Source: Candidatus Niyogibacteria bacterium RIFCSPLOWO2_12_FULL_41_13 (lineage in GTDB: Bacteria > Patescibacteriota > Minisyncoccia > 2-12-FULL-41-13). From it: a stretch of 56,538 nucleotides of DNA. Below the pieces are notes generated by a model, which was given only the letters and a program-made list of their open reading frames with translations, did no database searches and was not told where the DNA came from. The stretch lies in the NCBI GenBank assembly GCA_001821615.1, contig MHMS01000006.1, forward strand, positions 1 through 56,538. Reading direction: 5' to 3'. The translations under genes and the position numbers were made by a program. Position 1 is the first letter of the stretch. Each line of letters starts with the position of its first letter. This document shows, one piece after another, positions 43,171 to 44,362 of this stretch.

Positions 43171-44078
43171 AATTCTTTTACAAATTGATATAAATTTTTC
43201 ATATCTTCAAATCTGCCTTCATAAGTTGAATTCAAAACAATAAACAAATACGGCTCGTTAAAACTCAAATCGGCGATAATTATAAGATTTCCGCCGGCTA
43301 AGTCCGAAAAGCCGGTTTTTCCGCCGATTAAGCCCGGAATTTCAAAAACAAGCTTGTTTGTATTTTTAATTTTATGCGAAAAACCGTTTTCTGACAAAAG
43401 TTCCGCTTCTTCTCTTGTCGTAATGTTAAAAATATAAGGATAATTTTTTAAAATAGCCAAGACTAATTTTGCCAAATCTTCGGCTGTTCCAAGAGCGCCT
43501 GATTCTGTTTTTGAAATATCAAGCCCCGTTGGGTTGAAAAATTGAGTGTTTTTTAAACCGAGATTTTTCGCTTCTTTGTTCATTGATTCCACGAATTTAT
43601 CCGTTTGCCCCGCCAGGGCGCGCGCCGCGTCGTTTGAAGAGCCCAAAAGCATTATGTCGCGCAAAACCGAGGAACGAAAAACTTCATTTAAAATTAAGCC
43701 GTCGTCTCCTTCTTGGTTAACGGCTTCTTTTGTTATTGGAATTAAAACTTCAAAATTATTTTGTTTTCCTTTTGATTTTTCCGCCGCGTAAGCGGTCATC
43801 AGCTTGGTTAAACTTGCTAAAGGAAGTTTGGCGTCGCTATTTTTTTCAAAAATTATTTTTTCGTCGCTTAATCTCATCGCTAAAGCCGAACTTGCCGCAA
43901 TCGCCGGAGGTTTAAAAAAACGCTCTTTATCTTCCGTCTTTACTTGATTCGGAAGAAGAACGGCTGACGATTTGGAAATAGTTTTATATTCCGGCTTTCC
44001 GAGATAAAGATAAGACGCTTTAAAATTAATTAAAAGCGTTAAAATAAAAAAACTAAAAAATAAGGAGAATTTACTCAT
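43167..44078 (-). CDS. D-alanyl-D-alanine carboxypeptidase (S11 family)
   Basis: SLTK (SxxK), SSND (SxN) and KTG motifs. The start is taken at ATG 44078 (MSKFSLFF signal). The longer track ORF reads through the element TIR. Confidence 0.8.
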   Translation of the reverse strand: MSKFSLFFSFFILTLLINFKASYLYLGKPEYKTISKSSAVLLPNQVKTEDKERFFKPPAIAASSALAMRLSDEKIIFEKNSDAKLPLASLTKLMTAYAAEKSKGKQNNFEVLIPITKEAVNQEGDDGLILNEVFRSSVLRDIMLLGSSNDAARALAGQTDKFVESMNKEAKNLGLKNTQFFNPTGLDISKTESGALGTAEDLAKLVLAILKNYPYIFNITTREEAELLSENGFSHKIKNTNKLVFEIPGLIGGKTGFSDLAGGNLIIIADLSFNEPYLFIVLNSTYEGRFEDMKNLYQFVKEL

Positions 44079-44362
44079 CCCGTTAGAGATAGGAAACGTT
44101 TTAATCTGTTTTTGAAATAACGTTTTCCCACTCCAGTTTTTAAATATTTCTCTCTCGACCTCGCGTCTTCTTCGTTGAGGCACGCCTCATAATATATCAA
44201 TTTCCATGGAACCCCTTGTTTTGTCCAGGTTGATTTTCCTTTGTTGTGCTGATTAAAACGTTTCCGTAAATCATTAGTACTTCCAGTATACCAATAGCTG
44301 CTTTTTTGACTTTCAATGACATAAGTACAATACATAAGGTTTGGATCTCTAACGGGACTCAT
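44075..44362 (-). CDS. GIY-YIG nuclease family protein (YhbQ/UPF0213-like)
   Basis: 95 aa. YVIES...YTGSTNDLRKRFNQHN...E...REKYLK matches the GIY-YIG core. Confidence 0.85.
   Translation of the reverse strand: MSPVRDPNLMYCTYVIESQKSSYWYTGSTNDLRKRFNQHNKGKSTWTKQGVPWKLIYYEACLNEEDARSREKYLKTGVGKRYFKNRLKRFLSLTG
44079..44356 (-). mobile_element. 278-bp TIR element carrying a GIY-YIG ORF (CCCGTTAGA family)
   Basis: 12-bp perfect TIR CCCGTTAGAGAT / ATCTCTAACGGG. 6-bp direct flank repeat ACTCAT (44073-44078, 44357-44362). Confidence 0.85.

Follow-up and report, generated by a model that had tools for sequence, protein, structure and literature searches.

Introduction

The closest published counterpart of the system described here is that of the Ssn nucleases, 94-amino-acid (aa) single-domain GIY-YIG proteins of which SsnA of Neisseria meningitidis is the type (Chenal et al., Nat Commun 2025, PMC11893778). 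Ssn nucleases cut single-stranded DNA beside their own hairpin repeats, termed NTS or SRM; ssnA itself is bracketed by such repeats, hundreds of copies of which lie elsewhere in the genome, and the Neisseria SsnA/NTS pair is proposed to limit transformation or recombination (PMC11893778). The authors noted that NTS-ssnA-NTS resembles an insertion sequence, likened it to REP/RAYT and IS200/IS605, and hypothesised a domesticated mobile element; their paper reports no duplications, empty sites or start-codon capture (PMC11893778). Here we describe a 280-bp element with a single GIY-YIG nuclease gene, lying between scpB and a D-Ala-D-Ala carboxypeptidase gene in a 56,538-nucleotide stretch of DNA from Candidatus Niyogibacteria bacterium RIFCSPLOWO2_12_FULL_41_13 (contig MHMS01000006.1; hereafter referred to as the window). 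It looks like a minimal insertion-sequence-like transposon of Patescibacteria, with N-CCCGTTAGAGAT terminal inverted repeats (TIRs) and one Slx1/UPF0213/Ssn-like gene.

Judged from the published description, the element shares with the Ssn systems a ~94-aa single-domain GIY-YIG gene bracketed by its own repeat, a cognate repeat dispersed in the same genome (here as two copies without an open reading frame (ORF) within the same 56 kb) and a repeat sequence that differs between protein subfamilies, here with a hairpin-forming helix beside the element end. However, an Ssn gene has a self-contained hairpin repeat of ~28 nt on either side, whereas the two halves of a single inverted repeat enclose the gene here; the element also differs in having a 4-bp duplication, empty sites and a gene start captured from the host. 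The initial annotation of this locus had held that nothing comparable was known, a statement that the 2025 description of single-domain GIY-YIG nucleases with dispersed repeats (PMC11893778) has put out of date. We found no report of GIY-YIG transposons or insertion sequences in the literature. The finding is only partly anticipated by earlier work, and what is new is that Ssn-like nuclease/repeat systems behave as start-codon-capturing TIR transposons.

Other systems resemble the element in part. REP/BIME-RAYT and IS200/IS605 also combine a tiny single gene flanked by palindromic repeats, its presumed substrates, with dispersed ORF-less repeats and sub-terminal hairpins, and a single-strand mechanism is plausible for both them and the element; RAYT and IS200/IS605, however, use HUH/Y1 transposases with a covalent tyrosine intermediate, in contrast to the GIY-YIG hydrolase found here, and IS200/IS605 elements have neither TIRs nor a duplication, whereas the element has true TIRs and a 4-bp duplication. 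Insertion sequences of the IS5 and IS630 types, with their miniature inverted-repeat transposable elements (MITEs), share with it TIRs, a fixed-length duplication, a preferred target and internally deleted miniatures with the same ends. They differ in that the only gene here encodes an 86-95-aa GIY-YIG nuclease and no DDE transposase, the whole element measures 280 bp, and it has no detected promoter or terminator, its stop codon lying outside and its position being suited to borrowing the host start codon. The GIY-YIG fold occurs in other selfish elements, namely the I-TevI and Seg homing endonucleases and the Penelope-like elements, but the former have DNA-binding domains, depend on homologous repair and come without TIRs or duplications, and the latter are eukaryotic retroelements with a reverse transcriptase. 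Slx1 and the UPF0213 proteins (YhbQ/YazA/BH0048) are the best sequence and fold matches of the nuclease, and the cleavage of branched DNA by Slx1 is in keeping with a folded-end substrate; in contrast to the element, they are encoded by stable chromosomal repair genes without TIRs, duplications or dispersed repeats.

Results

The element interrupts the scpB-carboxypeptidase junction, which is empty in relatives

On the gene strand, the locus reads ...TTGGCGGA ATGAGT CCCGTTAGAGAT ... ATCTCTAACGGG ATGAGT AAATTCTCC..., with GCGGA just outside the upstream hexamer and AAATTC just outside the downstream one (Table 1). The initial annotation had pointed out a 12-bp perfect inverted repeat (44079-44090 and 44345-44356) enclosed by ACTCAT hexamers (44073-44078 and 44357-44362; ATGAGT on the gene strand), and all four positions proved correct. 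As it had also stated, the two host genes are intact, with scpB upstream of the nuclease gene and the carboxypeptidase gene downstream, and our site scan detected neither a promoter-like nor a terminator-like site within the element. The stop codon of scpB (TGA, 44359-44361) overlaps the ATG of the nuclease gene (44360-44362), and the stop codon of the nuclease gene (TGA, 44075-44077) overlaps the ATG of the carboxypeptidase gene (44076-44078). A protein identical to the window ScpB is named ScpB of Candidatus Niyogibacteria.

Three contigs (L103, L104 and L105) encode ScpB homologues 86-90% identical to that of the window, and in all three nothing separates scpB from the carboxypeptidase gene and ATGAAT occurs once where they meet. 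This junction reads ...AAATTTTTAGATGAATAAATTTTTT..., in which the start of the carboxypeptidase gene (MNKFF...) and the scpB end overlap, and the carboxypeptidase orthologues begin ATGAATAAA at the same place. The window thus equals the empty junction plus 280 bp and 4 duplicated bases. The empty orthologous sites that the initial annotation had asked for are therefore present in three related contigs. Contigs from several other samples have the same filled scpB/carboxypeptidase site with an identical element. In one 640-bp contig (L018; ERZ27254741 k141_142699), the element and its left flank are identical to those of the window and the right flank is different (ATGATATC...; ATGATATCTATATG...); this possibly represents a second copy, a population rearrangement or an assembly chimera across a repeat, and we did not take it as evidence.

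Borders of related copies define a 13-bp TIR and a 4-bp target duplication

Relatives were collected by scanning a genome collection with the single protein, which gave 12 loci whose DNA was fetched, and by searching metagenomes with an alignment of 56 homologues, from which the DNA of 80 loci was fetched together with that of contigs encoding identical proteins. The statistics given below are drawn from the alignment-based metagenome scan, not from the single-protein scan. More than 4,000 relatives of the nuclease are found in a large protein collection; most are exactly 95 aa long, and nearly all have the N-terminus M(N/S)PVRD and the C-terminus FLSLTG followed by the stop codon. The ends CCCGTTAGAG...CTCTAACGGG bound almost every copy and lie 272-284 bp apart, with modal sizes of 278 and 275 bp as measured between the CCCG...CGGG ends. 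An end-motif scan of the 480 kb of gathered DNA yielded 104 end pairs, all of them 270-330 bp apart with the gene or 39-127 bp apart without it; no larger element with CCCGTTAGAG-type ends was among them. The copies occupy ~80 distinct host contexts, and contigs L002, L080, L093, L100 and L011 hold two to three copies each. No relatives were found among the phage contigs of IMG/VR, a plasmid search returned two weak matches only, one of them B. subtilis yazA, and no Rfam family matched the elements.

We tabulated the borders and flanks of 94 non-redundant elements. The outermost base pair was complementary in 94/94 (T..A in 69, C..G in 24 and A..T in one), and this base therefore belongs to the inverted repeat, which makes the TIR 13 bp long and places the element at 44078-44357. 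The 4-bp flanks were identical on both sides in 60 of the 94 elements, compared with a mean of 28 and a maximum of 38 when flanks were permuted. Among the elements whose left 4-mer was not TGAA, 17/49 still had identical flanks, against 1.7 expected and a maximum of 6 in 5,000 permutations; the matching pairs were TGAG, TGGA, TAAA, TAAG, TTAA, TTGA, TTTG, CGAG, CAGA and CTTA. Since the flanks covary between the two sides, they represent a genuine target-site duplication and not element sequence. In the window the duplication is TGAG on the gene strand (CTCA at 44074-44077 and 44358-44361), and the consensus is TGAA. Thus, the TIR element with target duplication that the initial annotation had proposed is real, but the duplicated segment is 4 bp and not the hexamer, and the TIR is 13 bp and not 12. 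A model with a 6-bp duplication was rejected, as it requires mismatches in many elements that the 4-bp model with a 13-bp TIR removes. The additional copies that the initial annotation had predicted are represented by these 94 elements.

Elements with C..G ends include those at L083 2484-2760, L094 771-1047 and L097 2501-2779, and others in L065, L080 and L100. In three organisms, one such element is found at a shared position close to the 3' end of homologous ORF6N-type genes (...VVFDAIRQLY-PVR..., the hyphen marking the junction), which looks like a single old insertion inherited with the gene.

The elements have the properties of class II TIR elements, namely TIRs conserved as DNA, a duplication of fixed length, empty sites and multiple unrelated insertion sites. 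A recognised transposase (DDE, HUH, serine or tyrosine recombinase, or Cas1) is absent from this set of properties; the only ORF is that of the GIY-YIG nuclease. What lies between scpB and the carboxypeptidase gene is, in our judgement almost certainly, a mobile TIR element that inserted at this locus. The flanks also bear on the possibility that the gene is a free-standing homing endonuclease gene, whose product would cleave ATGAA sites that are still empty, the repair of the double-strand break then copying the gene in. In favour of homing are the GIY-YIG fold, which is classic for homing endonucleases, the strong preference for one site, and the subclass located at one position of a conserved ORF6N-type gene in three organisms. 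Homing, however, needs flanking homology and leaves neither TIRs nor duplications, whereas here the flanks are unrelated and the 4-mers covary freely; the 95-aa, single-domain nuclease has no DNA-binding domain, and ORF-less copies with the same ends would be left unexplained. We consider homing very improbable.

The ends and an internal helix are conserved as DNA

We compared 36 distinct 278-bp copies codon by codon. Identity by codon position was 0.84, 0.87 and 0.69 for the first, second and third positions, respectively. The third positions of the TIR codons (codons 3-5 and 92-94) were 100% conserved, compared with the average of ~0.69. These invariant synonymous sites, together with the occurrence of the same ends on ORF-less copies, bear out the view that the inverted repeat is a feature of the DNA and not of the coding sequence. 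The contrary explanation, in which the repeat arose by chance or its palindrome follows from conserved peptides at the N- and C-termini of the protein family, can appeal to the fact that the TIR does encode conserved residues (PVRD and SLTG). It is refuted, and we assign it practically no weight: drift is seen at other codons but not at the synonymous sites of the TIR; the first six residues, for which disorder is predicted, are in many copies separated from the rest by a stop codon; the same ends occur on non-coding miniatures; and the window contains no match to the motif outside a paired end.

Across 78 elements, the TIR was paired in 99.5% of the cells scored, with four pairs changed on both sides. 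DNA folding of the element paired the TIRs and, in addition, formed an internal helix of 11-15 bp adjoining one TIR (Table 1). The internal and TIR helices together were paired in 95.8% of cells, compared with 89.0% in shuffles; cells with changes on both sides of a pair numbered 163, against 39.5 in shuffles, and none of 500 shuffles reached 163. When the helix was slid as a control, pairing fell to 27-51%. Single base pairs of the helix alternate among C-G, U-A and A-U, or among U-A, C-G and G-C. The mismatches within the helix were balanced (34 G.T and 31 A.C), which indicates a DNA-level constraint and argues against a structure in sense-strand RNA; the internal helix as an RNA structure was rejected on this ground. 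In two miniature copies, in contigs L098 and L040, the 145-nt loop is gone and the helix is kept as a short hairpin beside the TIR, which makes the helix a cis-acting signal of the element. Miniature copies share with full-length ones both the ends and 20 nt of sub-terminal sequence.

The elements lie mostly on start codons

Targets were reconstructed for 59 elements whose duplications are perfect. The position immediately before the duplicated segment (-1) was A in 52/59; the four duplicated positions were T in 55, G in 51, A in 51 and A in 52; and positions +1 and +2 were A-rich. The preferred target is ATGAA(A), the commonest gene start in these AT-rich genomes. In the window, the insertion (A/TGAG/T) is in the carboxypeptidase start codon, which overlaps the scpB stop codon. 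TGAA/TTCA sites occur at ~12 per kb. In 55 of 80 full-length copies and in 6 of 12 miniature copies, the triplet at the right junction was the start codon (ATG or GTG) of an ORF with 60 codons or more. An ATG was present in the left flank of 49 copies; in 17 it overlapped the stop codon of an upstream ORF (ATGA type, as in the window), in 13 more it followed an upstream ORF within 33 nt, in 11 more it was located directly after a TATAAT-like box, and others had an intergenic spacer before it. The initial annotation had taken ATGA-type stop/start overlaps at gene boundaries as the target; such overlaps do occur, but they account for 17/49 only, and the general target is an A/TGAA start codon.

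In many target genes, a TATAAT-like box ends ~6-8 nt before the captured ATG, without a Shine-Dalgarno-like sequence. Left flanks of this kind are seen in L025, L029, L047, L057, L066, L081 and L102, and at 2857-2880 (-) of the window. This arrangement suggests that the targeted genes are often leaderless, and that the element then takes over a leaderless start.

The target duplication supplies the stop codon and an ATG

The upstream copy of the duplication reads A-TGAx-T/CCC GTT AGA GAT, that is ATG xxT CCC GTT..., in frame with the nuclease gene. By virtue of the cut position, the upstream copy gives the element an ATG fused either to the nuclease ORF or to a 6-codon leader that ends before an ATG at codon 10. 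Residues 1-9 of the nuclease are a disordered leader encoded by the target and the TIR. The codon-10 ATG, which opens the GIY-YIG (Pfam) domain, is present in ~97% of copies, and in roughly one in five copies a stop codon follows directly after PVRD (GAT TAA), a few bases before this ATG; these copies must therefore start at codon 10. At the other end, the downstream copy reads ...ACG GG(A) TGA x, so that the stop codon of the nuclease gene comes from the duplicated target, and the same copy together with the terminal A of the element (G in the C..G variants) rebuilds the ATG (GTG) of the host gene; in the window this terminal A, at 44078, is the A of the rebuilt carboxypeptidase ATG. The initial annotation had maintained that both codons are supplied by the duplicated target and that the element contains no start codon. 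The stop codon is indeed supplied by the duplication and an ATG by the target, but the element has a start codon of its own, the internal ATG at codon 10. From the arrangement of these codons, we infer that ribosomes from the captured host ATG would reach the nuclease gene either by in-frame fusion or by termination-reinitiation, and that the host gene may be translated by reinitiation at the ATGA overlap.

The nuclease is conserved and Slx1-like

The protein matched PF01541 over residues 10-80 (E=1.7e-18; 67 bits vs a cut-off of 22.6), and Y14, Y25, G27, R33, R35, H39 and E71 were invariant in 56 homologues, which settles the two points, family membership and candidate catalytic residues, that the initial annotation had left for checking. 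From alignment to BH0048/Slx1 and general knowledge, we take the two tyrosines, the arginines, the histidine and a metal-binding glutamate to be the candidate catalytic residues. The AlphaFold model had a pLDDT of 85, with residues 1-6 below 50 and predicted to be disordered. Its best fold matches were Slx1 (TM ~0.6), the UPF0213 protein BH0048 and the catalytic domain of I-TevI; by sequence, the nuclease matched 1zg2 with E=4e-8, and its best named relatives were UPF0213 proteins (BH0048 and B. subtilis YazA). The modelled fold is Slx1/UPF0213-like. The nuclease consists of one domain, is 95 aa long (86 aa if counted from the internal ATG) and lacks a DNA-binding domain. The median pairwise ratio of nonsynonymous to synonymous divergence (dN/dS) of the core was 0.15 at a dS of ~1.5, and 36/36 cores were intact; the gene is under strong purifying selection.

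These properties bear on the question of what moves the element. An unlinked transposase, for instance a DDE enzyme of an insertion sequence family with 4-bp duplications, might move it as non-autonomous cargo with the GIY-YIG gene as a passenger. TIRs with a short duplication of fixed length are the classic footprint of DDE enzymes, GIY-YIG enzymes have no known joining activity, and the ORF-less miniatures show that mobilisation in trans takes place. Against such an arrangement, however, none of the TIR types examined encloses any gene other than that of a GIY-YIG nuclease, 480 kb of flanking DNA contained no larger element with such ends, the nuclease has been under strong purifying selection in independently inserted copies, and the cis-acting helix is embedded in its coding sequence. 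We regard a passenger role as unlikely; that the nuclease encoded by the element is its mobility enzyme is the reading that we favour, with some confidence.

Miniature copies and further TIR types

The window contains two ORF-less miniatures with strong predicted DNA hairpins (Table 1). All six matches in the window to the TIR 12-mer (with up to two mismatches) are paired ends of the full copy and of these two miniatures. The 84-bp copy is flanked by the duplication TTCA (12123-12126 and 12211-12214; TGAA on the - strand) and lies exactly at the start of a membrane-protein gene, whose first codon is now GTG. The 65-bp copy has the flanks TTCA/TTCG (3/4 identical) and is located at a gene 3' end beside a terminator. 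Both had been named as miniature relatives in the initial annotation, and both proved real. At 11612-12214 (-), the ORF finder extended the membrane-protein gene back into the 84-bp miniature (MGRIIIINLTMNAQISNG-V-NQSKN...), and the same TIR reading frame (..SNGT..) is the C-terminal tail of some database proteins; such insertions can create spurious or real N-terminal extensions.

A second family of miniatures in the window, ~140 bp long, has the ends CCCAGTAAGAC...GTCTTACTGGG with TATG on both sides. At least five ORF-less copies and no full-length copy are found there. At least two of them (2719-2857 and 27095-27236) are placed exactly on the starts of - strand ORFs (MKIKKAIITVAGFG..., 291 codons, and MKRGRPKK..., 409 codons, respectively). 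The ends of this family bracket GIY-YIG genes in contigs L010 and L011. The closest relatives of the L010 protein are almost all from Patescibacteria; the contig itself is labelled Gammaproteobacteria, a label that may be a binning error. In the CCCAGTAA type, the proteins start MPSNTT, which is ATG plus the TIR; TATG flanks both sides, so that here, too, the ATG lies in the flanking repeat. Other inverted repeats, each beginning with CCC, enclose GIY-YIG genes that are more distantly related (TATG-CCCAGTAATAC...; TATG-CCCCGTACCACAG...; ACCCTGTGAAAAA...; ACCCCGCCCTCTA...). At least five TIR types enclose GIY-YIG genes (CCCGTTAGAG, CCCAGTAATAC, CCCCGTACCACAG, CCCTGTGAAA and CCCCGCCCTCTA), and an 8-kb contig labelled Saccharibacteria (L011, 1400-7300) carries three GIY-YIG genes, each in its own repeat type (CCCAGTAATAC, CCCCGTACCACAG and CCCCGCCCTCTA).

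At L068 1257-1534 and L085 1001-1275 (in the right flanks) and at 47322-47347 of the window, another element begins right after the 4-bp repeat; these are tandem or nested insertions with one common duplication. Elsewhere in the window, at 25504-25733 (-), lies a complete group I catalytic intron (Rfam RF00028; 59.9 bits against a gathering threshold of 50, E=9.8e-13), in which ARAGORN finds no tRNA.

Table 1. Coordinates of the element, its neighbours and related repeats in the window
Feature	Position	Strand	Description or basis
Mobile element proper, 280 bp	44078..44357	-	13-bp TIR, GIY-YIG coding sequence, 13-bp TIR
TIR arm, gene 5' end	44345..44357		Gene strand T-CCCGTTAGAGAT
TIR arm, gene 3' end	44078..44090		Gene strand ATCTCTAACGGG-A
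Target-site duplication, upstream copy	44358..44361		TGAG on gene strand; contains scpB stop TGA and TG of nuclease ATG
Target-site duplication, downstream copy	44074..44077		TGAG on gene strand; contains nuclease stop TGA and TG of carboxypeptidase ATG
GIY-YIG nuclease ORF, 95 aa	44075..44362	-	MSPVRD...FLSLTG-stop; PF01541
Internal ATG, codon 10 of nuclease ORF	44333..44335	-	Start of GIY-YIG domain
Internal helix, 5' arm	44251..44265	-	GGAAACGTTTTAATC, codons 33-37; DNA fold, covariation
Internal helix, 3' arm	44092..44106	-	GATTAAAACGTTTCC, codons 86-90; 1 nt from TIR arm
scpB, host gene	44359..44892	-	Intact; PF04079
D-Ala-D-Ala carboxypeptidase (Peptidase_S11), host gene	43167..44078	-	Intact; PF00768
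Predicted empty scpB/carboxypeptidase junction			GCGGAATGAGTAAATTC
ORF-less miniature, 84 bp	12127..12210	-	16-bp perfect TIRs; DNA fold -20.1 kcal/mol, z=-7.0
ORF-less miniature, 65 bp	5043..5107	-	14-bp TIRs; DNA fold -26.5 kcal/mol, z=-8.0
Second-family copies	2719-2857, 27095-27236, 29014-29155, 47347-47488		
Second-family solo end	47322-47342		
Second-family cut copy	from 56456		

Discussion

We propose the following scheme for the element. It would be expressed from whatever drives the captured start codon, and the host gene downstream would be translated by termination-reinitiation. The nuclease may recognise the folded ends, in which TIR pairing would be stacked on the sub-terminal helix, probably on single-stranded DNA by analogy with the Ssn nucleases, and would cut at the TIR/flank junctions. 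A 4-nt staggered break in the target followed by host gap repair would produce the duplication, and ORF-less miniatures that retain the TIRs and the hairpin would be mobilised in trans by the nuclease. A sticky-end 'cut and religate' reaction between matching TGAA overhangs was rejected as the sole mechanism, in view of the perfect duplications other than TGAA (CAGA, CTTA, CGAG, TTTG and others).

Several points weigh against a nuclease-driven transposon. We infer the role of the nuclease as the mover of the element from sequence. To our knowledge, GIY-YIG enzymes are hydrolytic, with no known strand-transfer or covalent-intermediate chemistry, which leaves the joining step without a known catalyst. 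About one-third of the elements have no perfect duplication, and the subclass with C..G ends has inverted flanks (ATTYAC...GTRAAT) without a direct repeat. The enrichment at start codons could be due to the removal of disruptive insertions by selection and not to any specificity of the enzyme. The SRM motif of the Ssn systems (HGTCWY..RNCYNB) has no match in the window, whose repeats are thus not SRMs. Copies that are identical or nearly so were not found at different sites, the best pair being 94.5% identical and copies on the same contig less than 87%; with dS between copies saturated at ~1.5 and no near-identical pairs, activity is rare or old. The long purifying selection on the nuclease could instead reflect a role beneficial to the host.

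Such a role is central to another explanation, that of a domesticated Ssn-type nuclease/repeat system, which arrived by insertion and was kept for a host function, such as cutting repeat-bearing single-stranded DNA, and thereby limiting transformation or recombination, or tuning translation of the downstream gene, and not by ongoing transposition. The copies are old (dS ~1.5) yet all intact, we found no recent bursts, and a single-copy ssnA with its own flanking and dispersed repeats is the published Ssn picture; the window has one full and two miniature copies plus at least five miniatures of the second type. However, the orthologous site is polymorphic for presence and absence between close relatives, dozens of host genes have been targeted, each with its own duplication, and several contigs carry two to three copies. 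The site polymorphism, the many targets and the multi-copy contigs together indicate that the gene itself moves, and we judge domestication as improbable as carriage by an unlinked transposase.

A broader reading, in which the nuclease moves the element, is attractive and remains tentative, and we would put it at somewhat below an even chance. The nuclease would be a transposase of a new mechanistic class, acting by 'cut and let host join' or on single strands, and, among known autonomous DNA transposons, the elements would be the smallest. In Patescibacteria, they would make up a superfamily with several TIR types and abundant MITEs, start-codon specialists living off host translation-initiation signals, from which the Ssn/NTS systems of Neisseria, Rickettsia and Wolbachia would have originated. 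If the nuclease does move the element, DNA transposition would have a further catalyst in GIY-YIG, besides the DDE, HUH, serine, tyrosine and Cas1 enzymes, and this in an element of 280 bp; the Ssn nucleases with their hundreds of repeats, including those near Neisseria virulence genes, would gain a testable origin and function. Small nucleases specific for a sequence or structure, with defined DNA partners, are also of biotechnological interest.

For the host, the element represents a new parasitic mode, in which one start codon is captured and another rebuilt, which would allow expression without a promoter or stop codon of its own, while the host genes of very compact genomes stay intact despite the insertion. 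At least eight elements, belonging to two TIR types, are present in the 56-kb window alone, and most of these separate a gene from the start signals that it originally had. Such insertions probably affect both annotation, through spurious N-terminal extensions and mis-called starts, and gene expression throughout the Candidate Phyla Radiation.

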